This document shows, in pieces, positions 29,902-62,965 of a stretch of DNA of 64,000 bases. Positions within the stretch are counted from its first letter, which is position 1, and each line of letters begins with the position of its first letter. This DNA is from a virus. The stretch spans positions 64,203 through 128,202 of the IMG/VR virus record IMGVR_UViG_3300035704_000002, one strand, 5' to 3'. The translations under genes were made by a program, and so were the position numbers. The notes below the pieces were generated by a model, which saw nothing but the letters and a program-made list of their open reading frames with translations, did no database searches and had not been told where the DNA came from.

Positions 29902-31047
29902 ATGGACTACGGCATCGACGTCTCCAACTGGAACGCGATCAGCGACGCGCACCGGGTGCGCGCGGCCGGCATCAGCTTCGCCTGGTGCAAGGCCAGCGAA
30001 GGCGAGCGCTTCACCGATCCCACCTTTGCATTCAAGATCAGCCAGCTCCGCGCGGTCGGCATCGTCGTCAACGGCTACCACTTCCTGGACGGCTCCGACC
30101 CGGCCGCGCAGGGTCGCCGCTTCCGGCAGATCATCGGTGACGCCGGCTGCCTCACCGTGGGGTCACTCATGCCGATGGCTGACATGGAGAGCGCCAGCGT
30201 GCGCAGCTCGGCGAACGCCGCGCTGGCCGCATTCTACGACGCGGTCGGCGTCGGCCCCCAGGACGCGTATGGAAACCTGGACTGGTGGGCGAACGTGCTG
30301 CGCCGCGACCAGTGGGGCGCTCGAAACTTCTTGGGGCACATCGCCCGGTACAACGGTGATCCGGGCAATCCGGGCTATGCCACCGACAAGTTGGCCGTGC
30401 ATCAGCACACCGACGCCGGCAATGTGGACGGCATCCCCGGGCACGTCGACCGCAACGCCACCATGCCCGGCTACTCGCTGGCCCAGATCTGCATCGGCGG
30501 TGTCGCCCCGATTGTGCCGCCACCGCCCTACGTGCCACCGGCCGCGCCTCCCGGTGACATCTGGACTGTGCATGCCGGCGATACCCTTTCGCGCATCGCC
30601 AGCGTCTGGGGCGTCACGGTGTCCGCGCTCGCCTCGGTCAATGGGATCCCCAACGCAAACTTGATCAGCGTCGGCGAACTCATCCACAAGCCCGGATCCA
30701 GCGGCGCCGCGCCCGCACCCGTCGACAGTGGACAGATCTATGTGGTGCGCTCCGGCGACACCCTGTCCGGCATCGCGATCAGCCACGGCACCAGCGTGCC
30801 CGTGCTGGTTTCGCTCAACCACATCGCCAACCCAGACCGCATCTCGATCGGCCAGGCCATCGTGATGCCGGAGCGCGCTTCGGCCACACCGCCCGCGCCA
30901 CGCGTCTACCTCGTGCGGAGCGGCGACACGCTCGGCGCGATCGCGGCGAGGTTGGGCTATCCCGGCGGGTACGTGGCTTTGGGTGCCCACAACAACATCC
31001 ACGGGCCGCAGTACGTGATCTATCCCAACCAGCAGATCTTCTACTGA
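29902..31047 (+). CDS. endolysin: GH25 muramidase with three LysM domains
   Basis: [36 protein letters not shown]; three GDTL..IA repeats; GGGAGG RBS. Confidence 0.95.
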
Positions 31048-31049
31048 TC

Positions 31050-31379
31050 ATGACGCCCAGTACCGCCACGGTGGTCAGCGTCCTGGTCGGCACCGTGCTG
31101 CCCTGGCTGACCGGCCGCGCCGTGCGCATCGCCGCCCATCCCCGGGTGCGCGGCGCCGTGCTGCTCATCCTCACCCTGGTCGCCAGCGTGGTGACCGAAC
31201 TCGGTACCGCGATCTCCAGTGGTGCGCCCTACAACTTGTGGCAGGTGCTGCTGGATGCGACATGGGCCTACGTCCTGAGCGTCGCCCTGCACACCGGGAT
31301 ATATCGTCACACGGCGCTCTACCAGCGCAACGCCGCCACCGGCGGCATCATCGGCCCCGCAACCACCGCACTGAATTGA
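31050..31379 (+). CDS. holin-like membrane protein
   Basis: Three TM segments, GTVLPWLTG, directly after endolysin. Confidence 0.75.
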   Translation: MTPSTATVVSVLVGTVLPWLTGRAVRIAAHPRVRGAVLLILTLVASVVTELGTAISSGAPYNLWQVLLDATWAYVLSVALHTGIYRHTALYQRNAATGGIIGPATTALN

Positions 31380-31386
31380 GGACACC

Positions 31387-31695
31387 ATGGGCGCCATCAG
31401 CGATGAAATCGCCAATATCGTCCAGTACGTCAAAGACGTCTGGGACCGCATCGATCACAAGCTCACCGATCAGGGCAAGACCGAGATGAGCAAGCTGCAC
31501 GACCAGGCCACGGCCGTGCTCGACATGGTCAAGTCGGACATCGACAGCGATGCGGCCGACGTGAAAACCGACGTCGGCCAGGATGTCGCCGCCGCCAACC
31601 AGGCCGCCGCACCCAGTGCGCCGCCGGTAGCGCCTGCCGTGCCGGCCACAACAGAAGAGTCACCGATTACCACAGTTACCCCCAGTCAGTCCTGA
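31387..31695 (+). CDS. hypothetical protein
   Basis: GAGGA RBS, ORF track. Confidence 0.7.
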   Translation: MGAISDEIANIVQYVKDVWDRIDHKLTDQGKTEMSKLHDQATAVLDMVKSDIDSDAADVKTDVGQDVAAANQAAAPSAPPVAPAVPATTEESPITTVTPSQS

Positions 31696-31767
31696 CCGGA
31701 CACCCAACGCGGCCCGGCCCGCGTGGCGCGCTTGCGTCCGCCGGCCGGGCCATGATGCGCTGGTGAC

Positions 31768-32022
31768 ATGAGCACCCCTAAGCCCGACGCCGCCCCCACG
31801 GGCATGGAAACCAAAGACCTCCCCCAGGGCTACGGCCACGCCGGTACGCCGGTGCCCGAAGTACTGGGCTACAACCAGACCACCGACAGCCTGGAACCGG
31901 TCACGCCGGTCAACGCACCACCCGCCGAGCCGGCGACCGAGGCGGCCGCGTCCACCACCGAACCGGACATCGGCAAGCCAAGCGTCGCCGTGTCCAGCAC
32001 CAGGGTGCCCGGGGCGTCGTGA
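31768..32022 (+). CDS. hypothetical Pro/Thr-rich protein
   Basis: ORF track, codon bias. Confidence 0.55.
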   Translation: MSTPKPDAAPTGMETKDLPQGYGHAGTPVPEVLGYNQTTDSLEPVTPVNAPPAEPATEAAASTTEPDIGKPSVAVSSTRVPGAS

Positions 32023-32273
32023 GCGGCCAGGCGATACCGCCGCGACTGGGTGACCGGGTGCACTACGTGGCCGAAGGCAGTCCGCTGCGTGACGACGGCA
32101 CCCAGAAATACTCCTCGGTGTGTCGCGCGGCCGACGTCACCGAGGTAGATCCGGCCAGTCCGCACCGCGTCGGCCTCTGCGTGCTCAACCCGCTGGGGAT
32201 CTTTTTCCGGCCGCTGGAGCACGGCGGCAGCGAACTGGGTCACGCCGGTGGCCAGTGGCACCACCGGCACTAG
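32019..32273 (+). CDS. conserved small actinophage protein
   Basis: G.RVHYV..G...CRAA.VTEV....VGLCVLNP.GIFF...G.WH pattern. Confidence 0.75.
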   Translation: MSGQAIPPRLGDRVHYVAEGSPLRDDGTQKYSSVCRAADVTEVDPASPHRVGLCVLNPLGIFFRPLEHGGSELGHAGGQWHHRH

Positions 32274-32533
32274 CGCACGTCGTGATGGCGTGTCGACGCG
32301 ACCTGGTGCAGCTCCAGATCGTGCACCGCGTCCGCCAGGTTCCGGCGTGCCTGCAGTTCCGGCGTGCTGATGTCCACCAGGTCGCCCACCGCATCCATCT
32401 CGGCCGCCCAGCGCTGGGCGGCCGAGACCACGCGCGCGGCCAACCGATGCGGCACCGTCGGCGCCTGCGCCATCGGGAGTGACTCCACCAGCGCGCCGCC
32501 TCGCACCAGTCGCAGATGCGCCCGGCCGGTCAC
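32270..32533 (-). CDS. hypothetical protein, last gene of the leftward arm
   Basis: GTGA overlap with VRR-NUC stop; stop overlaps the convergent gene. Confidence 0.55.
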   Translation of the reverse strand: MTGRAHLRLVRGGALVESLPMAQAPTVPHRLAARVVSAAQRWAAEMDAVGDLVDISTPELQARRNLADAVHDLELHQVASTRHHDVR

Positions 32534-32970
32534 GGCTGTAGTTTCGCGTGACGCGGGCAGTGGCAGCCCGGATAGGCAAGGTCCGGCACGAACCCCACCT
32601 CGGTGAGATGATCCAGGATCTCCCGAATATGCCCGTTGGTGCGGAACCAGCCTACCAGGGCGCCGGCCTTGGCCCACTTGCGCAGCGCCACCATCTGCGG
32701 ACCGGTCGGCCTGTTGCCCACCGACTTCGCTTCCAGCTTGAGGCACCGGCCGTGCACGCACGCATCCAGATCGGGTTCGCCCACATTGCCGTGAATGCCG
32801 CCGTGCACCTTGCGTGCATAGCCGAGACTGCGCAGTAGGACCAGCGCGTCACGCACCACCTCGGCTTCTGATCGGTGCCGGGGCGCCGCACCGGCGCGCA
32901 TGATAACCCGGGCGATACCCGGATCAAACTCCTCATCCTCGGGAAGCAGCGGCACGCCGAACGCTGTCAC
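32530..32970 (-). CDS. VRR-NUC nuclease (Holliday junction resolvase-like)
   Basis: SEAEV, KVHGG..GEPDLDAC..G...LEAK..GNRPT..Q. Confidence 0.88.
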   Translation of the reverse strand: MTAFGVPLLPEDEEFDPGIARVIMRAGAAPRHRSEAEVVRDALVLLRSLGYARKVHGGIHGNVGEPDLDACVHGRCLKLEAKSVGNRPTGPQMVALRKWAKAGALVGWFRTNGHIREILDHLTEVGFVPDLAYPGCHCPRHAKLQP

Positions 32971-34700
32971 GCGATCACCTCCAGGTCGGGCGGGATCAGT
33001 TCGGCCGGCACCATGTGCCGGTTGGTGGTGGGCGCAAGCACGCGTAGTTCGGCGTACGCGCGGGTCATGGCCACGTAAAACAGCCGGATGGCCTCGTCGG
33101 TGCCGGTGCGGACTTGCATGTTGCGGGCAGCGGCGGCGGAGACGTCCGGGCACACGTACACCACGTCGGCCGCCGCACCCTTGACTGAATGGATGGTGCC
33201 GATCACCACCTGGGGCCGCTGCTCCAGCGCCGCCGCGCCGTAGTTGCGAGCCAGTTGCAGGGGGTAGCGCACCACGTCCACCTTCGCCTTGAGCAATGCT
33301 TGCTCCAGGAACGCCAGGTCCGGCTCTGTCGCCAGTTCCAGCGCCTCCTCGGTGGCGAACAACGCCGCGATCTGCTCGAAGGGCACCGGGTCGTTCGGCG
33401 CGAATCGGCCGATCATCGCCTTGGCGCCACGAACCATGCCGGCATCGGCCAGCTTGACCAGCCCGGACCAGGCTTGCACGTCCGCGCCGGTCCACTCTCG
33501 GTCGTTCACCGCCAAGTAGCGCGCCACCCGTTCCGCCGTGGACAGCGCGCCGTCCTGGGTCGGCGCGCCCAGTGGATTCCAGCGCTGCTCACCGGGGCGA
33601 AACGGGTTGTGGAACGGCAGGCCGACCGCACGCAGATTCTCGATCAGTCCTTCCAGCATGTAGTTGCACGACGCGATGATCATCACGGTGCGACCGGCCT
33701 CGGTCTCGGCCATCACCTTCTGCACCAGTTCCGGATCACCCAGCGTCTGCGGTACCCGATAGGCGATGCCCGGCACCACTTCGCCGGCTTCATCCAGTCG
33801 CGAGTGGTAGATCTTCGGCCGGCGCCGACTCAGTCGCCGCACCCAGCGTTCCGCGACCAGGCGCACCGCCTCGGGCACTCGGTAGGAACGGTCCAGGACA
33901 TGATCGCTCACGTGCTCACCAGTCAGCGCCAATAGCGGTTCCGGGTCGCCACCGCGCCACTGGTTGATCGCCTGATCATCGTCCATTCCCAGCACCAGCC
34001 TCTCGGCCAGGCGTCCCCACTCCAGCGCCAGCGCCACCTCCAGTGGTGTCATGTCCTGCGCCTCGTCCACGATCAGGTAGCTGGGCCGTCCGGGCGCCGG
34101 TACTCCTTCGCGGGCCGCCTCCAGCGCGTACTCGATCATGTCCGTGTAGTCGACCGCACCGCCCGCGCCGCGTTTCCAATCCCGCCAACGTCGCCCGAAC
34201 TCGCGCACGCCCAGCGGCCAGTCCTCGGGTGGCAGGCAGGACGCGCGCATCCGGTCCAGCGCACCGATCAGCTCGTCACCGGTGCGGGCCAGTTCCGGCG
34301 CGACGCTCAACGCACCGGAGTCGCCCGAGGTGCCACCGCTGCGTCGGGTGTCCGGCGTGATACGCAGCTCTGGCGTCGCCGTGGCGTTCCAGTCGGCGAG
34401 CACCTTGGGGTCCAGCGCGACCGGTGGATGGCCCAGCGAGCGGTAGGCGTGTGAGTGCAATGTTCCGATCATGGAGTCGGCCGGGCGGATGCCCGCGCCA
34501 TCGGAGGCGAATCGCGAACCGATCTCCTTGGCGGCCGTTGTAGAAAACGACGCCAGCAATAGAGCGTCGGGACCGTGTTCAGCGACCGTCTTGCGGACGC
34601 GTTCGGCTAGATAAGTGGTCTTCCCGGTGCCGGGCGGACCCCAGACGCGCAATACGTTTCCGGGGTATGTCTCGGTTTCCGGGGTAGCAGGGGATGCCAT
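32967..34700 (-). CDS. UvrD/REP-like SF1 helicase
   Basis: GPPGTGKT, GTLHS, VDEAQD, DDDQAI..WRG, SYRVP, TIHSVKG, RLFYVAMTRA. Confidence 0.95.
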   Translation of the reverse strand: MASPATPETETYPGNVLRVWGPPGTGKTTYLAERVRKTVAEHGPDALLLASFSTTAAKEIGSRFASDGAGIRPADSMIGTLHSHAYRSLGHPPVALDPKVLADWNATATPELRITPDTRRSGGTSGDSGALSVAPELARTGDELIGALDRMRASCLPPEDWPLGVREFGRRWRDWKRGAGGAVDYTDMIEYALEAAREGVPAPGRPSYLIVDEAQDMTPLEVALALEWGRLAERLVLGMDDDQAINQWRGGDPEPLLALTGEHVSDHVLDRSYRVPEAVRLVAERWVRRLSRRRPKIYHSRLDEAGEVVPGIAYRVPQTLGDPELVQKVMAETEAGRTVMIIASCNYMLEGLIENLRAVGLPFHNPFRPGEQRWNPLGAPTQDGALSTAERVARYLAVNDREWTGADVQAWSGLVKLADAGMVRGAKAMIGRFAPNDPVPFEQIAALFATEEALELATEPDLAFLEQALLKAKVDVVRYPLQLARNYGAAALEQRPQVVIGTIHSVKGAAADVVYVCPDVSAAAARNMQVRTGTDEAIRLFYVAMTRAYAELRVLAPTTNRHMVPAELIPPDLEVIA

Positions 34701-34761
34701 ACTTGCCCTCCCAGAGCGTCCTTATGTGACGGTAGCGCGCGCACCATGTGCGCGGCCACCG

Positions 34762-35625
34762 TTAGTTGATCAATCGGTGAATGCGATCCTTCTCCACCGC
34801 CACGGCGGTGATGTCTCGCACCGGCAGGTCGACTCCGGCGAACAGGGGGCAGTACGACCGGTAGTCACAGCGGGAGCACTGGCTATCGGGGTTCGTCGGG
34901 TATGCGTCCACTATGGACAACTCGCCGTGACCGACCAATTGCGCCGTGTCCACCGACTGGTGGTACTTCTCGACCAGGCGTCCCAGAACGTAGTCCAGTG
35001 TTTCCGCGTTGAACGTGCCCATCGTCTCGTTCAACGCTCGCGTCGGAAAGAGGCCCACGGTGATCGAGCGTGCCCACGGGAACCGTTCGCGCGTCGCCTG
35101 GAAGTAGGTACCCAACTGCGGATGTACGACGATCTCGGTAGGAACAGCGCCCGTCTTCCAGTCCCGCGTGTGCACCCCGTCCACCGCCGTACGCAGCAGC
35201 AAGTCGATCGCGCCGATGATGACCACGTCGTTCACCGTCATCCGAAACGGCAGCTCGACCCCCAGGATCGCCCCCATGGCGGGAATCGGCAGGACACGCA
35301 GCACACGCTCCACCTCCGCCAGCGCGGACTCCCGCTGGCGGACAGTGATCGGGTCGCGATCAACATAGACATTGATCGCCTCGCGGGCGGCTCCGGCGAA
35401 CATCGACATCACGGCGCCGCGCGACCAGCTCCCTGGACCGTTGGCCGCCGCCTGGTACGCGGCGGCCAACCCGACGTGCACGAGTCGGCCGTGCACCCGG
35501 TGTGGGTCCACCCGCTGTGACGGCGTCACCCGCTGCTCGTAGGCCAGCCAATACCGCATGCGGCAGTCCGACCAAGTCTGTGCGGCGCTCACCGACCACG
35601 TGCGCTCCTGGACCAGGGTGTTCAC
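34762..35625 (-). CDS. PD-(D/E)XK RecB/Cas4-like exonuclease
   Basis: SVS...W.DC..RY, G.LVH, GAIDL, DWKTG, QL..Y, CSRCDYRSYCP. Confidence 0.9.
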   Translation of the reverse strand: MNTLVQERTWSVSAAQTWSDCRMRYWLAYEQRVTPSQRVDPHRVHGRLVHVGLAAAYQAAANGPGSWSRGAVMSMFAGAAREAINVYVDRDPITVRQRESALAEVERVLRVLPIPAMGAILGVELPFRMTVNDVVIIGAIDLLLRTAVDGVHTRDWKTGAVPTEIVVHPQLGTYFQATRERFPWARSITVGLFPTRALNETMGTFNAETLDYVLGRLVEKYHQSVDTAQLVGHGELSIVDAYPTNPDSQCSRCDYRSYCPLFAGVDLPVRDITAVAVEKDRIHRLIN

Positions 35626-35990
35626 CGGTAGCGCTCCCGCGTGGCGTCGACCGGACTCACCGATCGAGGTGCGTCCGTGACCGCGTCCACGATAACCGTG
35701 CCCACGAACGTGACCAGGCCGACGATGGTCCACCACCACTGACCGGTGACCAGCCACGTCAACAGGGCCGCGACCAGCAGGCCGAAACCGATCACCATCA
35801 GTACCCGTGACTTGGCCGGCTCACCCTTGCCGTTGCCGGTGGCCCCGTCCACGACGGCCAGAAAGACGCACACGGTCAGGCCGCCCACGGCCCATTGCCA
35901 GCGATCCCAGCTCAGACTCAGGACAATCCCCGTCGTAGCGCCGGTGTAGCCGAGACACTGCAACACCGTCGACTTCAGGCGTCTGGACAT
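35622..35990 (-). CDS. 4-TM membrane protein with internal duplication
   Basis: Two TM-W.W-TM units; GAGGAGG RBS. Confidence 0.7.
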   Translation of the reverse strand: MSRRLKSTVLQCLGYTGATTGIVLSLSWDRWQWAVGGLTVCVFLAVVDGATGNGKGEPAKSRVLMVIGFGLLVAALLTWLVTGQWWWTIVGLVTFVGTVIVDAVTDAPRSVSPVDATRERYR

Positions 35991-36022
35991 GTGAAACCTC
36001 CTCGACTTCGGGTCGTCGCTGG

Positions 36023-36289
36023 TTAATCGATCGCAACAGCGACGTGGTTACGAGGTTCGGTCTCGCGGGGGCCGGGCGAGTCGAACAGGGGCACCTGGTT
36101 GGGGTCGGGCGCGGGCGGCGGCGTGCGGCCAGACCGCGCGCGCATCTCGGTGGCCAGTTCGGCCAGGCTAGCCCGCATCCGTTCGCGATCGTCAGCGCTG
36201 CCGTAACCGCGCACGAGGTAGCCGACGTGCTGATCGACCAGTTCGGCGACAAGCCCGGCCGCGATGCGCTTGGCCTGCCGCCGGTTCAC
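36023..36289 (-). CDS. hypothetical protein
   Basis: ORF track, GTGA coupling, C-terminal DPNQVPLF. Confidence 0.65.
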   Translation of the reverse strand: MNRRQAKRIAAGLVAELVDQHVGYLVRGYGSADDRERMRASLAELATEMRARSGRTPPPAPDPNQVPLFDSPGPRETEPRNHVAVAID

Positions 36290-36474
36290 CCGACACCCAG
36301 CATGGCGTCCAGGGCGATCTCGTAAGCGGCGTCCGGGCCACCGTAGAACAGGCCGTCATCCAGTTCGGCGATCAGTTCGGGGTGTTCCGCGCAGACCGTG
36401 TCGTACTCGGGGTGCTCCACCGTCACCGTGGTGGTGTCCAGTTCGTCATCGCACCAGCCGCATCGCTTGATCAT
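36286..36474 (-). CDS. small Cys-containing protein, probably leaderless
   Basis: CGWC...C; ATG 7 nt from the -10 of promoter 36481-36509. Confidence 0.65.
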   Translation of the reverse strand: MIKRCGWCDDELDTTTVTVEHPEYDTVCAEHPELIAELDDGLFYGGPDAAYEIALDAMLGVG

Positions 36475-36480
36475 GCAGCG

Positions 36481-36509
36481 AGTCTAGCCTGTTTGACTAG
36501 GCTAGTCAA
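36481..36509 (-). promoter_or_regulatory. early promoter with embedded palindromic operator
   Basis: TTGACT-AGCCTAGTCAAACAGGC-TAGACT. Confidence 0.85.
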
Positions 36510-36808
36510 GCAGAGATGGCGGCCTGAAGTCGCGCCCGCACGACCGCCGGCCGGTGGACACCCACGCGTGCGCGCTCACGGCCCACCGCGTGTGCGTAGC
36601 GCGCCACGATGGCGCTGATACGAGGGTCGGACTCCTGCTCCTGGGCAGCCACGCGCATCCGAGCGAAGAACGCCGTAAACGAGGCATCCTCGGCGGCGTC
36701 GGCCGCATGTCGACGTGCTCGCCAGTTCAGGACGCTGCGTCGCGCGGCCGGCGTCGCCACCACGGTCAGCCCCAGGATCAGCTCAACCTGGTCACTCGTG
36801 ATCATCAC
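36506..36808 (-). CDS. hypothetical protein
   Basis: ORF track, overlap coupling. Confidence 0.55.
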   Translation of the reverse strand: MMITSDQVELILGLTVVATPAARRSVLNWRARRHAADAAEDASFTAFFARMRVAAQEQESDPRISAIVARYAHAVGRERARVGVHRPAVVRARLQAAISA

Positions 36809-37427
36809 TGCCCACTTCCATCATCTGGTCGTGGATCAGCTCCAGCGGCACGGGCGTCTGCCAGGCATCCACGGACACATTGATCATTCGGTCCCGAGCG
36901 TGCCACGAGGAATCACCCTCGCCACACAGCAGCCACGGCGCCGATCCCTTAACGGGACGCTTCGGTCGCCAAGCGGCGAACGGCTCATTCGGACCGGTGG
37001 CGAACTGGAACGGCGAAAGCCAGAACACGGCTCGGCCCGGCCCGAGCGGCAGGCGCATCGCCCAGCCCTTGCGTGCCATCGCCGCGCCGTTGACCACCGC
37101 GTGAAAACCGGCGCGCTGGTAGTCATCGGTCAGTGCGGCCAGCTTCTTCGGGTCAGCGGTGTGCGCGGAGAAGCACGTATCGGTCTCGCCGGCCATCAGG
37201 ATCTTGCGCCCCTGGATGCCCGGAACCCGGCCCAGATCCGGCGTCACGCCAGGAGCGAACAGGTTGCCCAGCATCCACACCATGTCCCGCGCCTCGACGC
37301 ACGCGTTGTGTCGGTCGATCAACTGGGCGTCCCGCTGGACGTCCTGACCCAACCGCCAGTTTCCGGTGAACCACACATCCCCGTACTTCCGAGCCAGCAG
37401 GCCGAGATCGTATTCTCCAGTCATCAT
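36792..37427 (-). CDS. calcineurin-like metallophosphoesterase homologue with substituted metal ligands (pseudoenzyme)
   Basis: VWFTGNWRLG, VWMLGN, GRKILMAGETD, LSPF, WLLCGEGD, INVSVDAW. Confidence 0.8.
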   Translation of the reverse strand: MMTGEYDLGLLARKYGDVWFTGNWRLGQDVQRDAQLIDRHNACVEARDMVWMLGNLFAPGVTPDLGRVPGIQGRKILMAGETDTCFSAHTADPKKLAALTDDYQRAGFHAVVNGAAMARKGWAMRLPLGPGRAVFWLSPFQFATGPNEPFAAWRPKRPVKGSAPWLLCGEGDSSWHARDRMINVSVDAWQTPVPLELIHDQMMEVGSDDHE

Positions 37428-37430
37428 GTG

Positions 37431-37455
37431 AAGCCGTCCTAACTAGGCTAGTCAA
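37431..37455 (-). promoter_or_regulatory. operator copy with -35 TTGACT but non-consensus -10
   Basis: AAGCC-GTCCTAACTA-GGCTA-GTCAA abutting the phosphoesterase start. Confidence 0.6.
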
Positions 37456-38278
37456 CGATTCGCACCTTCTGCTGACGACGTACCTTCTTGACCGGAATCG
37501 TCGCCGGGTCCACCTCGAAGCGCTCGGAGTCCGGCGGCCACGACGGCCGCGTCGACACCGGTCGCAAGCAATCCAGGCAGTGGCCGGACACGTCGCCCCG
37601 CCACCTACCCGGCCACATGCGCGCACCGCATCCCCGGCAGTCCTCCCATCGACGTAACCGCGTCAGTCGCTCCCAGGGCAGAGCCTCATCCGGCGCAACA
37701 GTCTGACCCCATATCGGGCTCAGTACGCCATCCGGACCTACCACCCAGGAGCCAACGATCTCGGCATCGTTCGAGTAGGGATGGCCAGCTCGGGCCGAGG
37801 CCGCCCAGCGCGCGGCGATTCCGCGCGCGCTGGCCTCATTGTTCGAACACGGCACCACCGACATGTTCGCCGTGGTCAACACGCAGGCGACCCACGGCGC
37901 GCCCACCGGCATGCCCGGCCGGAAATAGGGTGAGCCACCATCACGAGATATCCGCACGGACCGCGCCGGCTCGATCGGCGCGTTCGATGTCGACGTGGAC
38001 AGCGTGGCGGCCCGCCGCGCGTACGCACCCGTACGCCGCACCGGGCCGACCGGCCGCGCCACGACGTCCTCCGTCTGCGCCCACAGCTCGATCAGCCGTT
38101 CCACGCAACGATCGTGCATCGGGTAGTAATCCCGGTCGCGCTGCCACCACCAGCCGGTCGCGTGGTCGCACACACAGCAGGCGCCCAGGATGCCCGAGCG
38201 CAGCTCGGACATGATCCGGTCCTTGTCCGGACACGGGCCGGCCTCATCGCGGGGCACCGGCGGTAGGCCGCTCATCAC
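37448..38278 (-). CDS. hypothetical protein with Zn-finger motifs at both ends
   Basis: CCVC...H.RC and CRGC...CLDC. Confidence 0.65.
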   Translation of the reverse strand: MMSGLPPVPRDEAGPCPDKDRIMSELRSGILGACCVCDHATGWWWQRDRDYYPMHDRCVERLIELWAQTEDVVARPVGPVRRTGAYARRAATLSTSTSNAPIEPARSVRISRDGGSPYFRPGMPVGAPWVACVLTTANMSVVPCSNNEASARGIAARWAASARAGHPYSNDAEIVGSWVVGPDGVLSPIWGQTVAPDEALPWERLTRLRRWEDCRGCGARMWPGRWRGDVSGHCLDCLRPVSTRPSWPPDSERFEVDPATIPVKKVRRQQKVRIVD

Positions 38279-40587
38279 GCACCCCCTTTGATCATGCGCA
38301 TGCCACGTCGTTCGCGCCCGTCAGCCGCGTCCTTGGCGGCCTGCAAGATCTCCCGCCACTCCAACGGCGTGAACTGACTCGACGCGATCTCGAACAGTCG
38401 CTTGCGACTCTGGCCGCCCTCACCCCGAAGGCGCGGCCGACTGCGGTGCACGTGCAGGTGGTCCAACAGCGCGATCGCGTCCCTGCCACTGCGACCACCG
38501 GGCTGCGTGGCGACGAAAGCGAGGAACCCAGACTGCTGCACCAGGATCGTCGGCGCCCCACCGACACCCCACTGGGCATGATCGGACAAGAACGGCCGGC
38601 CGGCCGTTACGGCCTCGGTCTCCTCCGTCGTGGCCGGTCGGCTGATCAGATACTCCAACAGCCACTCGTGCATCTGGGTCGTCATGTCGGTACCCGAGGA
38701 GTCCGGCGCCCAGAACGGCACCAACGCGGAGATCAGCATGATCCAGTCGTCCTTGCTGGAGCCGACCGGCTGCGCCGGGATCTTCGCGTCGCGCTCCATC
38801 GAGCGCCGAAAAGCCTTGGGCGTCTCGAAATCGTCCCGCCGCCACCAGTCCAGATAGAACGGCAAGCCGGGTCGGTAGAGCTTGGGCCGATTGCCGCCGG
38901 GCCAGTCGAAATCCACCGGCAGACGCAACACCAACCGGCCGGTGGCGGCCGGACCACGGTCCCGTTCCTCCAGCCGCCACACCTGCACGCCGCGCTCACG
39001 ATAGGGAGGGGGGGTCAGCAGTACGTCCAGTTCCTGCAAGGTGGCGACCGCGTCATCGTGGCGCTCACCCCACGGGTCCGCCGGGGGCGGCTGCTCCTCC
39101 TGTTCACGTCGCTGGGCCGCGACATGCACCCGGATCGGCACTGGGTCCGGCTGCGGTTCGGGCGCAGGCTCGGCGGCCAGCAGTTCAGTCGTGAAGTCGG
39201 CCAGCGGGTCACTCGGTAGCTCGGGCTCCAGTTCAACGGCGACGCTGGCCGCGCCGTGGCTGGTTGATGTGGCTCGCGCGGTGGGTGGCGCGACCGTCGG
39301 CGTGTCGTCGGAGTTGGTGACCGGCGCGGGAATGGCGACCCGCGCGGCTGCCGCGCGGGCCACGGTATCGGCCAGCGTGTCGCGACGGTGCTGGCTGGCT
39401 ACGGTGTCCACCCCGGCGGCGGCAGCGGCGCCGTGAACGTTGGCGATGGTGCGCACCAGGTAGTCGGTGCGCACCATCGGGTCGACCTTGTCCGGCTTCT
39501 GTCCAGTGGACAGACGCCGCGCCATGACCGCTTCGGCCTGCCGCTGCGCGGACACGCCAACGTTGAGCAGCAGTCGCACCAGCGCCGCGTCAAGCCTGTT
39601 CGGGTCGTCGTCCAGGTCGGGACGATCGTTCGCCCAGGTTGCCTCCAGGATCGATCCGGGTGAGAGTTCGAGCAGGTCGGCCAGCCACGTGGGCAAGTGG
39701 GCCGGTGCCGCGCGGGCGGCCTGCCATGCCGCGACCAGATTCACATCCGGCAACGAGGCGGCGACCTCGCCCGCGCGGCCGGTGATCGAGCGCTGCGCGA
39801 ACTCGGCCAGCACGTCGTCAGGTGCCAGGTGCTCCCGGATCTGATCGGGTTCATAGCGGGCACCGGGGTCGAAGTGAACCATTTTGACCGGGCGCGGCGC
39901 GACTCCCTTGCAGTTCAGGCTGCCAGGTGCCCGCATGACGCGGTCCAGGTTGAACACCGCGTCCACCGCCCAGGTGCCCAGTCTGCGCGCGTGGTGACCC
40001 AGCGTGTGCACCAGATCGCGGGACAGGGCGGCCATGGCGGTCTTTTCGGCCACCGGATCGGTGGCGTCGGTGGCCAGCCACGGCTCGACCAGTAGCCAGT
40101 AAGGCTGAAGTCCTCCCCCTGAGTGCAGGATCATGGACGGCGGCAGGCCGATCGCGTCGACAATCTGCATCGCGGACGCCTGATCCGGGGGGTAGTGCGT
40201 GGCCTTGTGGCCCGGACCAGCGATGTCGATATCAGCCCAGAGAGTCGGGATGCCCTGCACGTCGTCTGCCGTCAGGCGCCGTCGGTGGGCCGGTACAACC
40301 TCACCGTGGCGCGTGTTGTTCGCCTCGACGGCAGCCGTGGGCGCCATGCCCAGGCTGACGTATACGGCGCCGATCTGGTCGGGCTGTCGGCGAACCTCGG
40401 TATGCAGGATGGACGCGAGGGAGCCCGGCTGTGCCGGGCTCCACGTCGTCATCTTCGCGGGCTTGGGTTGTGCCTGGTCAAGCGTCCATACGTAGGTGGA
40501 CCACCCGTCCAGCCGGTCATCGCCCGTACCAAACGGTCCGCCGAGAAGTGCCGAGCAGAAGGCGTCGATCTGCTCGGCTCTGTTCAT
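38275..40587 (-). CDS. RepB-like (AEP superfamily) DNA primase with long C-terminal region
   Basis: LWADIDIAGPGHK, PSMILHSGGGLQPYWLL, VD.VFNLDRVMRAPGSLN.K; no Walker A seen. Confidence 0.85.
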   Translation of the reverse strand: MNRAEQIDAFCSALLGGPFGTGDDRLDGWSTYVWTLDQAQPKPAKMTTWSPAQPGSLASILHTEVRRQPDQIGAVYVSLGMAPTAAVEANNTRHGEVVPAHRRRLTADDVQGIPTLWADIDIAGPGHKATHYPPDQASAMQIVDAIGLPPSMILHSGGGLQPYWLLVEPWLATDATDPVAEKTAMAALSRDLVHTLGHHARRLGTWAVDAVFNLDRVMRAPGSLNCKGVAPRPVKMVHFDPGARYEPDQIREHLAPDDVLAEFAQRSITGRAGEVAASLPDVNLVAAWQAARAAPAHLPTWLADLLELSPGSILEATWANDRPDLDDDPNRLDAALVRLLLNVGVSAQRQAEAVMARRLSTGQKPDKVDPMVRTDYLVRTIANVHGAAAAAGVDTVASQHRRDTLADTVARAAAARVAIPAPVTNSDDTPTVAPPTARATSTSHGAASVAVELEPELPSDPLADFTTELLAAEPAPEPQPDPVPIRVHVAAQRREQEEQPPPADPWGERHDDAVATLQELDVLLTPPPYRERGVQVWRLEERDRGPAATGRLVLRLPVDFDWPGGNRPKLYRPGLPFYLDWWRRDDFETPKAFRRSMERDAKIPAQPVGSSKDDWIMLISALVPFWAPDSSGTDMTTQMHEWLLEYLISRPATTEETEAVTAGRPFLSDHAQWGVGGAPTILVQQSGFLAFVATQPGGRSGRDAIALLDHLHVHRSRPRLRGEGGQSRKRLFEIASSQFTPLEWREILQAAKDAADGRERRGMRMIKGGA

Positions 40588-41429
40588 CCGGTCGGACCGT
40601 CACCCACGCTGATGCCACCGTCGCCGGCCGCCTCGGCGGTGCCCGAGTCGGTGAAGTCGGCCACGGCGGCGTCGATCATGGCCTTGATCTCCAGGCCGTA
40701 CACCTGGGCGGCGCGCCGTTCGTCGTCGGACAGCGGGCCGACCATGCGTAGCTCGACCTGGTTGTACGTCTGGTTGTTGCTCGACTTCGCCTTGACTAGG
40801 CCCAGGCCGGTCTCCACCGCGAAGTAGGGCAACTGGTCTTCGGACAGGTCCATGGCGTAGCTCACGACCTTGCGCACCGAGGTGCGCGGCACCACGACCA
40901 CGACCGGGAACATCGCGCCGTCCGTCGCGAAGAACAGCAGCCGCTGCTCGCGGCATGCCTGGCCTTTCTCGCTCTTGGGGTCACTGCCCCGTTGGGCCAT
41001 GGGGCAGTTGCGGCACAGCCCCGTCGGGTTGAGGTGACCCAGTTCGCCGCTGGCGTGGTACCGGCCGCCTTCGTCCGGCGTCTTGCCGTCGGAGGAGAAG
41101 CAATCCGGGAAGCTGCCGTCGGGTTCGTTGCTCTCCCAGTAGCTGCGCCGTGCCTTGATCGCGATGACCACGCCGATCAGTTCCTTGACCGCCCGCTGCG
41201 TACCGGCGCGCGTGACCATCCAGGAGTCCAGTTCGCCGGACGGGACCTTGATCCGCTTGAAATCGCGGACCCCCAACTCCTCGTCTCCCAGGTTCTCCTG
41301 GAAAACCTCCATCATTTCCGGGGTCGGCGCGATCGCCGGGAAGCGTTCGGCGAAGGATTCGCGCACGTCCACCATGCCCGAGCCGTCGCGCAGGGCGACG
41401 CTGGTGGTGGGTTCCGTTTTCGTTGCCAT
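40584..41429 (-). CDS. putative ssDNA-binding/recombination protein (Zn-containing)
   Basis: RSYW...PDCFSSDG...CRNCPMAQRGS...ACRE.RLL, VPRTS; acidic C-terminus; AGGAAAGG RBS. Confidence 0.6.
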   Translation of the reverse strand: MATKTEPTTSVALRDGSGMVDVRESFAERFPAIAPTPEMMEVFQENLGDEELGVRDFKRIKVPSGELDSWMVTRAGTQRAVKELIGVVIAIKARRSYWESNEPDGSFPDCFSSDGKTPDEGGRYHASGELGHLNPTGLCRNCPMAQRGSDPKSEKGQACREQRLLFFATDGAMFPVVVVVPRTSVRKVVSYAMDLSEDQLPYFAVETGLGLVKAKSSNNQTYNQVELRMVGPLSDDERRAAQVYGLEIKAMIDAAVADFTDSGTAEAAGDGGISVGDGPTG

Positions 41430-41585
41430 CAGGGGGATGCCTTTCCTCATGGTGTTCCGTCCCTCGGGTCCAGTCCGAGGGTCCAACCGGCGGCGTTCGG
41501 TGAGACTAGCGCCGCCTCTCGGGGTCGCCGAGCTTCCGACGCGCGGGAGCACCGACGGCCCAAAGATGATCAGCGAGAGGCGTTC

Positions 41586-42443
41586 TCAGAGGCGTCGGCG
41601 CCCACGGTGGGAGACCGCCGCGCGGGCACCGGCCCGCCGCTTGGCCGAGGACTGCGTGGCGCGCACCTGTGGCCGGTTCTTGACCTCCACCAGCTTCGCC
41701 AGCTCGTCCGGGATGCCCAGGTCAGCCTCGATGCGCTCGCGCAACATCGCCTTGAGCGTGTTCCCGTTGTAGCCGTTCGTGACGATGCCCCGATCCATGT
41801 TCAGCTTCCGCAATGCCCGAATCACGTCGGCCGTCCCGAACTTGGCGCCGTCACCGTCGGCGAGATAGTTCACGTAGTACACCGGCGAGAACGAGAAGGT
41901 CATGCCGTCCAAGGCGGGGGGAGCGTCCAACCCGAGCAGCACCGTGTCCTCCACGATCTGTTCGTTCAGGGCGTCACGCTCGGCCTTGAGCGTCTTCAGC
42001 AGCGCGTCCGCCTCATCCACCTGCCGGTCGACCCACAGCCAACGTCGCTGTGCGTCCGCCAGCGTGGTGACAGCGGCATCGGGTGCCGGCGTGGCAGGCG
42101 CATCCACCGGGGCGGCCGTGTCGATGACCGGCGCGACCGCCTCGGGGAAGTCGGGCACCAGGCCCAGTTCGGCCGGTGCGGAGGCCAGAACGGTGTGCCA
42201 CTTGTCGGTGAGCCGGTCGGCGGACAGGCGTGCATGCTGCGTGCCGTCGGACAACAGCAGGATGGCGACGCTGCCGTCCTGGGTCAGGGTGATGGTGCGC
42301 ACGATCATCGTGACGTTCTTCGTGCGCCACGATCGACCGCTGGTGTCCAGCCACGTAGCGCTGACCACGGTGCCGTAGGCGGGTAGAGGTTGGCCTTTCC
42401 ACAGCAGGTCGACTGCTGCGGCGGCGGTGTCGGGCGTCGACAT
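41586..42443 (-). CDS. phage replication-module protein (coiled coil plus conserved C-terminal domain)
   Basis: LKAERDALNEQI...NTLKAMLRERIE...IPD; GGAGG RBS. Confidence 0.65.
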   Translation of the reverse strand: MSTPDTAAAAVDLLWKGQPLPAYGTVVSATWLDTSGRSWRTKNVTMIVRTITLTQDGSVAILLLSDGTQHARLSADRLTDKWHTVLASAPAELGLVPDFPEAVAPVIDTAAPVDAPATPAPDAAVTTLADAQRRWLWVDRQVDEADALLKTLKAERDALNEQIVEDTVLLGLDAPPALDGMTFSFSPVYYVNYLADGDGAKFGTADVIRALRKLNMDRGIVTNGYNGNTLKAMLRERIEADLGIPDELAKLVEVKNRPQVRATQSSAKRRAGARAAVSHRGRRRL

Positions 42444-42471
42444 CGGTCCTCCGGGGGTGAGAGTGATCACG

Positions 42472-42500
42472 AGGCTAGCCGTACCGGGCCGGCTAGTCAA
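42472..42500 (-). promoter_or_regulatory. early promoter with embedded operator
   Basis: TTGACT-AGCCGGCCCGGTACGGC-TAGCCT. Confidence 0.8.
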
Positions 42501-42780
42501 GCCATCGGACCAGCAATCCCTCACCCGACTCCGAAAGCTCCACAGTAGACACTCCCTCCTTGTTGGGATTGCCCACCACGAGCGCGCCGGCCTGTCGAAG
42601 ACTGGTCAGTGTCCGGAAGTCCCACCCACCCACCGCTTCGCCGGACAGCGACCACTCCGCCGCGCGCGGACGGTAGGTCACGCGCCGCGCGCGCACCGCC
42701 GTCAGGGCGTCCACGCGGGCGTCCGTTCGCTTGCCGATGTTGTTCTCCAGCCTGGTAACCGAGTCATACGGTTCGGTCAT
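42493..42780 (-). CDS. hypothetical protein, possible winged helix
   Basis: TLTSLRQAGALV...VELSESGEGLL. Confidence 0.6.
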   Translation of the reverse strand: MTEPYDSVTRLENNIGKRTDARVDALTAVRARRVTYRPRAAEWSLSGEAVGGWDFRTLTSLRQAGALVVGNPNKEGVSTVELSESGEGLLVRWLD

Positions 42781-43126
42781 TGCCTGCCCTCACAATCGAT
42801 TCGAGAATGGCGCCCACACGCGGATAGCTGTATTCGCCCACGCGAATGGTCGTATTCAGTAGATAGATCGACAACACGTCCTGACGCAGCGCGTAGTCGT
42901 CCGTGGTCAACTGCGCCACCGTGAAGCCATCACTGGCCGCGCGTAGATGGGCGGCCAACGCGCGGTACACGCTCTGTAGATCGCCACCGTCGGCCGCGAT
43001 CGACGCCAGGTGATCGAACAGATCGGCCTGCTGACGCACGCCCGACCGCACCGCCTCGACCGAGGTGGCCAGTTCCTCGTCGGTCGGTTCACGCGGCGGC
43101 GGCACGGCCGGCCTACTTCGTTTCAC
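42764..43126 (-). CDS. hypothetical protein
   Basis: ORF track, overlap coupling. Confidence 0.6.
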   Translation of the reverse strand: MKRSRPAVPPPREPTDEELATSVEAVRSGVRQQADLFDHLASIAADGGDLQSVYRALAAHLRAASDGFTVAQLTTDDYALRQDVLSIYLLNTTIRVGEYSYPRVGAILESIVRAGNDRTV

Positions 43127-43334
43127 GTGGAACGCCGCCCTTCGCCCACCGTGGCGCCTGGCCCCCCGCCGGACACTGGGGCACCATCTCGCCCGAGAAG
43201 TCGCGGGTGTACGGCTTGTGCGCGTAGAACGTGCCGGCCGTCGTCAGGCGAATCTTGCGGTGACACTGCCCGCACGGCACCCTCGTTCTGGCTCGCGGTA
43301 CCACCGACCCGGCTGGCTGCTGCGTCGCTGTCAT
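43113..43334 (-). CDS. small Zn-finger protein
   Basis: CGQC...H...C. Confidence 0.6.
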   Translation of the reverse strand: MTATQQPAGSVVPRARTRVPCGQCHRKIRLTTAGTFYAHKPYTRDFSGEMVPQCPAGGQAPRWAKGGVPRETK

Positions 43335-43822
43335 GCCGGGTCATCCGACGCGGTGTAGTCCAGCCGCATACCGGGGAGCAGTGTGCCGTCCTTGTGCAGC
43401 GCGGCCGTGATACGAGCCGCCATGGCCTCGTGTGTCGGCACCATGATGTGGTCGATGTAGGAGCGCTCCACCTGTTGCAGCGTCACCCCTGGCGTCGCCA
43501 CCATCGCCTCGTCCACGTCGAACATATCGGCGATGTCCTCCATCACGATCGTCGGATCGCCGCTGTTCCAGCCGTCACGCCGGTGCGCCAGGCGCAGCTT
43601 GAAACCGTGGCGAGCCAGCCGGACCGCGACCGCCGCACTGATCAGGGTGACCAACACGAGCGCGTGGCTCGTGGTGACCAGACCCGGCCTGGTATCGGTC
43701 GCGACCGTGGCGAACAGCAGAACGAGGGTGGCCAACGCGGCACGCACGGTCCACTGCTGCGCGTACAGCTCCGGATCGGCCGCGACACGGCGGCGTTGCC
43801 GGCGACGCTGACGTCGGTTCAT
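43331..43822 (-). CDS. 2-TM membrane protein
   Basis: MNRRQRR start, two hydrophobic segments. Confidence 0.65.
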   Translation of the reverse strand: MNRRQRRRQRRRVAADPELYAQQWTVRAALATLVLLFATVATDTRPGLVTTSHALVLVTLISAAVAVRLARHGFKLRLAHRRDGWNSGDPTIVMEDIADMFDVDEAMVATPGVTLQQVERSYIDHIMVPTHEAMAARITAALHKDGTLLPGMRLDYTASDDPA

Positions 43823-44187
43823 ACCCTCTCCTGCTGTTGCTCGGGTGGTTCGGCGTGCTCGACCAGTGCGGTGATGATGCGATCCCGCACCTGCTCCGGC
43901 ACGCTGGGGTCCTTGCTCAGCACGGTGAGCAGGCGGGCCAGCACCGTCCAGTGCGACCGCGCCTCGGCGGCGTCCAGGCCAAGGGTGACGCGCCGCTTGT
44001 GTTCCAGCGTGAGCGCGGCGCTGACCTCGCCGAACAACCGCGTGAGGTAGCTCACGATCACCTCGCGGTAGCCGGCCGGGCCGGACCGCGTAACGATCTT
44101 CTCGACCAGTGAACCGGCCTCCTGGGAGATCAGTCGATCAGGGCTGCGACCTCCCCGTAACTCGCGAACGATCAACTCGGTAGACAC
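43819..44187 (-). CDS. hypothetical helical protein
   Basis: GGAGG RBS, GTG start, downstream of promoter. Confidence 0.65.
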   Translation of the reverse strand: MSTELIVRELRGGRSPDRLISQEAGSLVEKIVTRSGPAGYREVIVSYLTRLFGEVSAALTLEHKRRVTLGLDAAEARSHWTVLARLLTVLSKDPSVPEQVRDRIITALVEHAEPPEQQQERV

Positions 44188-44227
44188 GGCAACCTCCAAC
44201 GCGGGGACAGGGCGGGAAATGGTCGCA

Positions 44228-44256
44228 AGCCTAGCCGAGTAAGATCGGCGAGACAA
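44228..44256 (-). promoter_or_regulatory. early promoter with embedded operator
   Basis: TTGTCT-CGCCGATCTTACTCGGC-TAGGCT. Confidence 0.8.
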
Positions 44257-44352
44257 GGTGCCTCTTGCCTGAACTGGTCTTCACACCCACTATCGGTAGT
44301 CGTGATCCAACCGGTTGAGGGATGCCAGACCGGACAGACCACGCACCAGGTG

Positions 44353-45273
44353 TCACTCGGGGTTATCTCCGGCCCGGCTGGGCGTCGTCGGGTCGGAGCC
44401 CGTGGCCACCATGGCGTCCACCAGTGATCGAGGCCGCATCGGCCACTGCGCCGCACTGACCATCAAATCCCGCGACCGCTCCCGCGTCTGCTCACAGGTC
44501 GCCGCCACCAGCGCGTCGTCAGGCTCCCGTGTGATCTCCAATCGATTCAACTTCGCCCGAACAAACGCGACGTTGCCGCTACTCCACGCGCGTTGCATCT
44601 TCGTGGCCTCACCGTCCAACCAGCCACCCATGTTCTCGCACCATGTGCGGTGCCAACGAATCTGGCGTTGATGCAGCTTGGCCAGATTGATGTAGCCGAC
44701 GGAACCCGCATACGTCGCGGCCAGCTTGTAGGCCAGCCGCATCGTGGCCAGTGTGTCAGCGACCGCGTCATGCGCGTCCTCGCCCAGCGGCACGCCGTAG
44801 TGCTGGCACATCTGGGTGAGCTTGCGGCCACCCTTGCGCCACCGATCGTTGGCCCGGTCGATCACCAGCGGGTCGACCAGGTAGCGGCCGGTGAAGTCGA
44901 TACCGGCGGTCGCGCCGAAGTGTCGCGCCAGTTCGCGGTCAGCCATCGTCAGGTCGTAGGAGCCGTTGAACGCGACGATCGGACACTGCGGTGTCCAGAG
45001 ACGTTGCATCAGCTCGCGCGCCTGCGCCCAGACCTTCTCGGGCGGCTCGCCATGGTCACGCGCGTAGTCGGTGGTGATGCCGTGCACGGCGGTGGCGGTC
45101 TCGGGGATCTCGATCCCCGGATTGATCAGGAAGTGGTATCGGGTCGGTTCGCGGCCGGGTTCCCGATGGATCAGGGCCAACGTAACGGCTCGATCGGACT
45201 CCGGATCGACACCCGTGGTTTCCAGGTCGAATCCCAGTAGCGGGCCATCGGCCCAACTTGAGCGTTGTCGCAT
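44353..45273 (-). CDS. DnaQ-like DEDDh 3'-5' exonuclease
   Basis: FDLETTG, VHGIT, AFNGSYDL, AHDAVADTLAT. Confidence 0.93.
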   Translation of the reverse strand: MRQRSSWADGPLLGFDLETTGVDPESDRAVTLALIHREPGREPTRYHFLINPGIEIPETATAVHGITTDYARDHGEPPEKVWAQARELMQRLWTPQCPIVAFNGSYDLTMADRELARHFGATAGIDFTGRYLVDPLVIDRANDRWRKGGRKLTQMCQHYGVPLGEDAHDAVADTLATMRLAYKLAATYAGSVGYINLAKLHQRQIRWHRTWCENMGGWLDGEATKMQRAWSSGNVAFVRAKLNRLEITREPDDALVAATCEQTRERSRDLMVSAAQWPMRPRSLVDAMVATGSDPTTPSRAGDNPE

Positions 45274-45405: not shown

Positions 45406-45434
45406 ACAGTAGCCGATCTAGAGCGGCTTGTCTA
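45406..45434 (-). promoter_or_regulatory. probable early promoter with embedded operator
   Basis: TAGACA-AGCCGCTCTAGATCGGC-TACTGT. Confidence 0.65.
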
Positions 45435-53580: not shown

Positions 53581-53614
53581 CGGCTAGCCTAGCTGATACG
53601 GCTAGGTAAGACTA
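53581..53614 (-). promoter_or_regulatory. operator copy and probable promoter
   Basis: TAGCC-TAGCTGATAC-GGCTA (53585-53604); TAGTCT-17-TAGGCT possible. Confidence 0.65.
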
Positions 53615-61513: not shown

Positions 61514-61542
61514 AGTCTAGCCGAGTTAGCCCGGTTGGTCAA
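61514..61542 (-). promoter_or_regulatory. early promoter with embedded operator
   Basis: TTGACC-AACCGGGCTAACTCGGC-TAGACT. Confidence 0.82.
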
Positions 61543-62936: not shown

Positions 62937-62965
62937 AATCTAGCCTGTTTAGCTAGGCTTGTCAA
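62937..62965 (-). promoter_or_regulatory. early promoter with embedded operator
   Basis: TTGACA-AGCCTAGCTAAACAGGC-TAGATT. Confidence 0.88.

Follow-up and report, generated by a model that had tools for sequence, protein, structure and literature searches.

Why would a phage keep an enzyme whose active site has been replaced residue by residue? The question is raised by an open reading frame (ORF) at 36792..37427 on the minus strand of a 64,000-nucleotide stretch of viral DNA (positions 64,203 to 128,202 of IMG/VR record IMGVR_UViG_3300035704_000002; this whole stretch is referred to here as the window). The frame is open from an ATG start and encodes 211 amino acids, a single domain with the metallophosphoesterase (MPE) fold; the product is called here the pseudo-MPE. 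It is very probably a dead enzyme that has been kept under selection. That this pseudoenzyme was kept for a non-catalytic binding role in an early replication/recombination module has close to an even chance of being right.

By sequence, the ORF is a member of the calcineurin-like metallophosphoesterase family of the D29 gp66/aq_1665 type. PHROG 547 ('phosphoesterase') matches residues 32-205 (E 2.3e-8); D29 gp66 is matched at E 1e-8 in pairwise comparison and at 99.95 % probability in the family profile, and the same profile matches Aquifex aeolicus aq_1665 (structure 1xm7) by sequence at E 3.9e-26. A phmmer search gave 210 relatives at E <= 1e-3, and tblastn against 50,697 phage records found 26 records (22 Arthrobacter phages and four Mycobacterium phages), all at 24-29 % identity and with the matched genes annotated as (metallo)phosphoesterases. 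Pfam Metallophos gives no match to the pseudo-MPE even at E <= 10, its gathering threshold not being reached; the annotated phage MPEs ANI8 gp72 (37.6 bits) and DrManhattan gp34 (30.4 bits) pass that cut-off. A direct phmmer search of PDB sequences returned nothing significant (best E 0.53), and the NCBIfam and PADLOC libraries contain no family for the pseudo-MPE or for the product of the gene upstream, ORF276.

The pseudo-MPE was aligned with three annotated phage MPEs (ANI8 gp72, BaileyBlu gp36, and DrManhattan gp34) and then with 150 database relatives. The remnants of the five catalytic motifs, all on the minus strand, are NWRLGQ in place of DxHxxH (motif I, residues 23-28, 37344..37361), GN in place of GD (motif II, residues 54-55, 37263..37268), GETD in place of GNHD (motif III, residues 80-83, 37179..37190), SPFQ in place of SHFP (motif IV, residues 138-141, 37005..37016), and CGEGD in place of the CGHVH of intact sisters (motif V, residues 168-172, 36912..36926). 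Each of the seven ligand positions is changed (D23N, H25R, D55N, N81E, H139P, H170E, and H172D), as is the catalytic histidine of motif III (H82T). Thus none of the eight catalytic positions is kept, the residues there being N, R, N, E, T, P, E, and D; for the roles of these eight residues, seven metal ligands and the motif III histidine, we take what is generally held for the superfamily. D83 is retained by every aligned family member, and N55 is the sole former ligand position that is invariant in all five members of the clade described below. The subclade of the window also lacks a 13-residue loop directly after motif I, which in relatives holds a conserved RPF. The blocks flanking the motifs are kept: VWFT (18-21), VWMLG (50-54), GRKIL (73-77), WLL (165-167), and INVSVDAW (182-189). 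An earlier sequence-only reading had described an intact ORF of the L5/D29 type with every canonical metal ligand replaced and the flanking residues preserved, and all of this recurs in the alignments, including each motif replacement that it listed; only its account of motif V needs amendment, since CGEGD is a replacement as described but the cysteine (C168) is not a loss, the motif-intact sisters likewise reading CGHVH.

Phosphodiesterase activity is predicted to be absent because all ligands are lost; the protein would be catalytically inactive, unable to hold a two-metal centre. Single substitutions of the motif I Asp, the motif II Asp, or a motif V His in another phage MPE, A10ZJ24 Gp48, support this prediction: neither toxicity nor nuclease activity remained with any of D10G, D41V, and H175D, and phosphodiesterase activity was also gone with D10G (PMC12287305).

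An AlphaFold2 model of the pseudo-MPE, built from a 148-row alignment, has a mean pLDDT of 91.7 and a pTM of 0.87, and speaks for compatibility of the sequence with the scaffold. The sole PDB match of this model in Foldseek at E <= 1e-3 is 1xm7_A, the Aquifex protein aq_1665 (E 4.8e-5), to which VIA-align superposes 157 residues with Z 16.0 and rmsd 3.3. Z is approximately 11 for LpxH and approximately 9 for SbcD/Mre11 and GpdQ, and for the polymerase B-subunit chains of Pol delta and Pol zeta it is 8.7 (6p1h_B) and 8.5 (8tlq_F). In addition, 16 predicted viral phosphoesterase models match at E <= 1e-3. In the model, then, the four-layer alpha/beta MPE fold is retained.

A search of 5.8 billion proteins found four relatives besides the window's own protein that share its losses: P0002 (82 % identity), P0003 (78 %), P0004 (57 %), and P0005 (40-46 %). 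All four are full length (208-228 amino acids). Like the pseudo-MPE they read GN in motif II and CG(E/A)G in motif V, and in every one of them motifs I and III are both incomplete. Across the five proteins, down to the 40-46 % identity of P0005, 72 of the 211 columns are invariant. P0004 represents a cluster of seven distinct sequences of 210-211 amino acids and 93-100 % identity; one of these occurs on 13 contigs, and the longest contigs of the cluster are 122,532 and 112,414 bp. Scans of viral and genome contig collections for further relatives of the clade found none.

The ratio of nonsynonymous to synonymous substitution rates (dN/dS) was compared between the window and L005, a relative at 57 % whose MPE repeats P0004, with the NG86, LWL85, and maximum likelihood (ML) methods. 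Taken as rough values, the ratios for the pseudo-MPE are 0.37, 0.34, and 0.16, respectively; those for three genes around it are 0.28, 0.28, and 0.09 (primase-polymerase), 0.39, 0.42, and 0.08 (ORF276), and 0.42, 0.38, and 0.09 (ORF100). The pseudo-MPE protein is 57 % identical to its counterpart in L005, and the products of neighbouring genes are 50-67 % identical to theirs. Selective loss of catalysis under continued selection, as the sequence-only reading had proposed, is borne out by the losses shared within a clade, the full length of its members, dN/dS values that are low and similar to those of adjacent genes, and a model that has the MPE fold and not a different one; what was found is a group of relatives under constraint, not a singleton in neutral decay. 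A dead pseudo-MPE would thus have been kept in a lineage of soil phages of about 120-128 kb.

Within the clade, the positions of the former pocket are less conserved than the rest of the protein, as a trend: 1 of 10 is invariant compared with 71 of 201 elsewhere over five rows (Fisher p 0.17), and 2 of 10 compared with 106 of 201 over four rows (Fisher p 0.054). Variation occurs at positions 25 (R/Q), 28 (Q/L/A/N), 81 (E/P/H), 82 (T/H/G/L), 139 (P/H), 170 (E/A), and 172 (D/G/A), and in one member of the P0004 cluster, P0171, the residual histidine of motif IV has become tyrosine. This trend speaks against conservation of a ligand pocket and favours a function that resides on the remaining surface.

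The position of the gene indicates where such a function may lie. On the minus strand, the genes follow one another as primase-polymerase, ORF276, pseudo-MPE, ORF100, ORF62, ORF88, ORF122, and a Cas4-like exonuclease. Heading this conserved block is a primase-polymerase-like protein of 770 amino acids (38275..40587, minus strand; PHROG 2478 'DNA polymerase/primase', E 2.2e-16), with full-length identities of 66.6 % to its homologue in L005 and 40 % to that in L012. In the window, L005, and L012, the MPE slot comes after ORF276 (37448..38278, minus strand), whose product contains two Cys/His clusters. Downstream, the start of ORF100 (36506..36808, minus strand) overlaps the end of the pseudo-MPE gene by 17 nt, and this gene is conserved in L005 and L006. 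The block ends with a Cas4-like PD-(D/E)XK exonuclease (34762..35757, minus strand; Pfam PF12705, E 7e-23), which has tblastn matches in L005, L006, and L012.

In L005 the same slot is occupied by a degenerate MPE. In L006, by comparison, a motif-intact MPE is followed by homologues of ORF100, ORF62, ORF88, ORF122, and Cas4, and in L012 the primase-polymerase and an ORF276-like gene are followed by a motif-intact MPE. Because the same genes flank intact MPEs, the pseudo-MPE and an active MPE are, judged by synteny, positional orthologues. The intact sister P0006 and the ORF276 homologue P0160 both lie on contigs of 126,398 bp, and the contigs of P0002 and P0003 are equal in size to those of the ORF276 homologues P0156 and P0155, respectively; these equal sizes suggest that the two genes are linked in each of the three pairs. 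No active paralogue was found: PF00149 is unmatched in the phage's own 128-kb genome, where the family profile finds only the pseudo-MPE ORF.

Catalytic loss recurs in the wider family. The alignment comprised 157 rows (the window, 151 database proteins, three cultured-phage proteins, L005, and L006), 23 of which are degenerate, each having no more than five of the eight catalytic positions; this count includes the window, and also L005 although it repeats P0004. Another six are either truncated or altered at one or two positions. A FastTree phylogeny of 152 rows (L005 was omitted as a duplicate, and four others because of their length), with the motif columns kept, needs four state changes, of which strongly supported branches force two; a quick IQ-TREE phylogeny under a mixture model, with 43 rows picked from the FastTree and the motif columns removed, needs six, of which starred branches force three. 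Both trees unite the window with P0002, P0003, and P0004 in a clade (support 99-100), nested in an eight-row clade (support 97-100) that also holds the intact P0006, P0007, and L006, and most other degenerate rows are placed elsewhere. On these trees, degenerate MPEs would have arisen in at least two to three separate lineages.

The placement of P0005 calls for caution. Forcing the window, P0002-P0004, and P0005 into a single clade costs 17.3 lnL (p-AU 0.041) for a group that was named after the tree had been seen, and P0005 has Q25, N55, E170, and G171 in common with the window clade. A firm claim of independent motif loss in P0005 was rejected on these two grounds, the post hoc naming and the four shared replacement residues. 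Further degenerate rows outside the window clade are P0008, P0009, P0012, P0014-P0016, P0018, P0021, P0028, P0045, P0051, P0052, P0068, P0074, P0140, and P0150; all come from metagenome assemblies, and they often have GPGD or GPxD at motif III and serine for glycine in the INVGVD block. For 15 degenerate proteins the alignment was too divergent to serve as a search query. Viral contig scans with the degenerate P0021 and P0009 found nothing. In cultured phages, tblastn with P0021 gave 123 records and with P0009 gave 19, all below 60 % identity; there were no degenerate copies among the four of the 123 P0021 records that were checked (MaGuCo, Liebe, Kumao, and Dulcita, all motif-intact).

We tentatively assign the pseudo-MPE to the replication/recombination module as a component that binds without catalysis, a view that is credible but held with less than even confidence. 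The protein would act by binding rather than hydrolysis, in a structural or accessory capacity within the block made up of the primase-polymerase, ORF276, the MPE, four small ORFs, and the Cas4-like nuclease, and it may thereby continue a catalysis-independent job that its active ancestors already held. A more specific version, rather unlikely as it stands, is that MPEs of the D29 gp66 type in general have a second, catalysis-independent job in the primase-polymerase/Cas4 module, which the repeated dead versions expose, and that the pseudo-MPE serves here as an accessory subunit, like a polymerase B subunit, together with ORF276 and the primase-polymerase. The specific roles put forward by the sequence-only reading, a nucleotide-signal sponge or decoy and a scaffold for replication proteins, appear unsupported by the checks made here; of these, the scaffold would fit the conserved gene slot best.

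Several points weigh against a binding role in this module. The link with replication rests solely on gene position, and ORF276, a candidate partner, has no known fold or family. Both the lack of activity and the binding role are inferred. E81, E170, and D172, together with N23, N55, and D83, could in principle coordinate a hard metal in the window protein, P0002, and P0003. The dN/dS ratios are rough because dS, at approximately 1-2, is saturated, and the lower conservation of the former site is a trend and not proof. Finally, the alignment given to AlphaFold2 consists mostly of active relatives, so the model cannot reveal a collapsed or altered pocket. Prediction of a complex between ORF276 and the pseudo-MPE scored 0.00 in both runs and carries no weight for or against binding.

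Among known systems, the closest is the D29 Gp66/L5 gp66 type (PHROG 547; structure 1xm7), which is of the same family, fold, and size as the pseudo-MPE, is likewise a single domain, and has a similar neighbourhood, with replication genes on one side and a Cas4-like exonuclease on the other. D29 Gp66 and 1xm7 keep all five motifs, whereas in the pseudo-MPE every ligand is gone; it is also without the RPF loop and has an N-terminal extension of 14-16 residues. D29 Gp66 is reportedly a 2',3'-cyclic nucleotide phosphodiesterase, in work attributed to Dutta in 2014. Inactivated MPE domains are found in the B subunits of Pol alpha, delta, and epsilon and in the retromer protein Vps29, which have lost the ligands and serve as protein-binding scaffolds. 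The likeness of the pseudo-MPE to the polymerase B subunits is functional only, with no specific relationship; the Z scores are not above those of many active MPEs. B subunits have an OB-fold domain and bind a Cys-rich C-terminal domain of the catalytic subunit, whereas the pseudo-MPE model is a single domain without OB and its Cys-rich neighbour ORF276 has no recognisable fold.

Bxb1 gp47 (L5 gp54 type) is also an actinophage protein of the MPE fold with known roles that are independent of phosphoesterase chemistry; it is required for phage DNA replication besides its role as a directionality factor (PMC11795197). On its chemistry, PMC12287305 states that none was detected, and PMC11795197 reports limited exonuclease activity. 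Unlike the pseudo-MPE, gp47 belongs to another subfamily, with no significant sequence similarity to it, and keeps GNHD- and GHxH-type motifs. A10ZJ24 Gp48 is, like the pseudo-MPE, an MPE superfamily protein made from an early actinophage gene, and it shows that activity requires the motifs. It breaks down the DNA of the host and acts against defence (PMC12287305), but it is of the Bxb1 gp47 type, active, and toxic. Without a metal centre, the pseudo-MPE would be unable to use the mechanism of Gp48.

The best-surviving alternative to a binding role in the module, though an unlikely one, is that the dead pocket still binds and sequesters either its ancestral substrate or a second messenger used in immunity, making the protein a nucleotide-signal sponge or decoy. 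Pseudoenzymes often retain substrate binding, which would favour such a sponge; in MPEs, however, phosphate is held via the metals. The former pocket, moreover, differs between clade members to the point that P0171 has lost even the residual histidine of motif IV, the site has lost its adjacent RPF loop, and the pseudo-MPE matches no PADLOC or NCBIfam family. In favour of a sponge, active relatives have cyclic nucleotides and phosphodiesters as substrates, as PMC12287305 summarises for D29 Gp66.

It is improbable, again, that an active nuclease or phosphoesterase has the pseudo-MPE as its dominant-negative or regulatory partner. The target would be an MPE enzyme of the host, SbcD/Mre11-like or other, or a phage nuclease of the block, with which the pseudo-MPE would form heteromers or compete for a shared partner. 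The resemblance of the fold to SbcD/Mre11 (Z approximately 9) and the presence of a Cas4-like nuclease in the same block are consistent with this proposal, as is the toxicity that active phage MPEs can have as nucleases (PMC12287305). However, the nearest structural relative is aq_1665 and not SbcD, and the 211-residue single domain is without the capping and Rad50-binding parts of Mre11/SbcD.

The carboxylates noted above raise the quite improbable case of a protein that is still an enzyme, in which a remodelled, carboxylate-rich site (E81, D83, E170, D172, N23, and N55) binds Mg2+ or Ca2+ and carries out another reaction. Three His/Asn ligands have indeed become Glu or Asp in the window protein, P0002, and P0003, but the carboxylates are not kept in P0004 (P81, A170, and G172) or P0005 (H81 and A172), and P139 and T82 remove further essential groups.

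Alternatively, the gene could be a functionless relic whose frame is open by chance, through high G+C content, or through translation coupling to ORF100. High G+C content does lower the density of stop codons, and the 3' end of the gene overlaps ORF100 by 17 nt; nevertheless, this explanation is very improbable. When substitutions alone were simulated up to the 35 % nucleotide divergence observed, with indels not counted, the frame survived in 1.5 % of 4000 cases, and the dN/dS of 0.16-0.37, the invariant columns across five proteins, and a divergence no faster than that of neighbouring genes likewise argue against a relic.

A role as a recombination directionality factor for a serine integrase, the use annotated for the MPE-fold protein Bxb1 gp47 (PMC11795197), is barely credible because the complete 128-kb genome contains no serine or tyrosine recombinase domain (PF07508, PF00239, and PF00589, with working positive controls for PF07508 and PF00239), and gp47 itself is of a different MPE subfamily (best BLASTP E 0.77; hhalign 7.5 % probability over 14 columns).

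Part of the value of the MPE family to phages would be independent of hydrolysis, because the dead clade stays selected in the slot of active orthologues and other degenerate lineages exist. Phage MPEs are widespread and are routinely annotated as enzymes, yet few have been studied (D29 Gp66, Bxb1 gp47, and A10ZJ24 Gp48), and the label 'calcineurin-like phosphoesterase' would mislead for degenerate members such as the P0004 cluster, two members of which are named 'calcineurin-like phosphoesterase family protein' by one source (JGI). No description of phage pseudo-MPEs was found in the literature searched, with subscription journals and supplements outside its scope. The pseudo-MPE is a degenerate form within an enzyme family already known from phages, and its main interest lies in the recurrent loss and in the fact that syntenic phages provide natural pairs of orthologues, one active and one dead, which offer material for separating the catalytic from the structural role.

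Some features of the neighbouring genes may be added. Known families cover only residues ~60-260 of the primase-polymerase; the other ~500 residues are conserved in L005 and L012 and belong to no family, and a low-complexity linker rich in Ala and Pro lies around residues 400-510. Homologues of ORF276 number 15 in metagenomes, plus one in an Actinophytocola genome. They conserve an N-terminal C-x2-C...H-x2-C cluster, a GAYARRA block, and an S-x-DGGSPYFRPGMP-x-GAPW block, and the long forms have a second cluster, C-x2-C...C-x2-C. ORF276 matches no Pfam, PHROG, or NCBIfam family, and its AlphaFold2 model (pLDDT 77) gives nothing in Foldseek at E <= 1e-3 and an uninformative best Z of 4.8 in a wide VIA search. 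The Cas4-like ORF as listed overlaps ORF122 (35622-35990, minus strand) by 136 nt; its true start probably lies further downstream, because relatives align only from residue 54 onwards.

A promoter-like motif recurs in this genome. In full it spans approximately 29 nt, reading TTGACa-AGCC, then 9-12 nt, then GGCTA-nAnT (with TAnAnT as the -10 element), and an ATG usually follows 5-8 nt later; there are 38 hits on both strands of the 128-kb genome, compared with a mean of 1.9 (maximum 5) in 50 shuffles. The arrangement looks like that of leaderless transcription, and the conserved spacer (AGCC...GGCTA) suggests that a phage-specific regulator binds at these promoters. The sequence-only reading had placed an operator copy on the start of the pseudo-MPE gene. 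A copy does lie near the gene, but it is partial, TTGACTAGCCTAGTTAG (37439..37455, minus strand), consisting of the -35 hexamer and half of the spacer and thus only the 5' half of the motif, and it lies 12-28 nt upstream of the start codon and not on it. This copy overlaps the stop codon of ORF276, and an AGGA-type ribosome-binding site comes after it. The pseudo-MPE gene is probably read through from upstream, because this copy is without the -10 half and because the N-terminal extension, which would be lost if the transcript began at the half-motif, is conserved in P0002 and P0003. A complete palindromic copy stands in front of ORF62 at 36481-36509 (minus strand). Further copies in the window, all on the minus strand, are at 42472-42500, 44228-44256, 45406-45434, 53581-53609, 61514-61542, and 62937-62965, and most copies are in the other half of the genome.

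The full record is 128,202 bp long, carries direct terminal repeats, and is rated 100 % complete by CheckV; the window makes up its right half. The G+C content is 61-71 %. The genome has no close cultured relative; megablast of window positions 30000-45000 against the 50,697 phage records gave no match, and the window contains no tRNA genes. The lineage appears to be uncultured, probably lytic, and actinophage-like. Both sequencing runs that contain matching DNA (n=2) are soil metagenomes, with no RNA run among them; one is probably the source of this DNA, the other has only short identical pieces, and related contigs of 112-126 kb are present in several assemblies.

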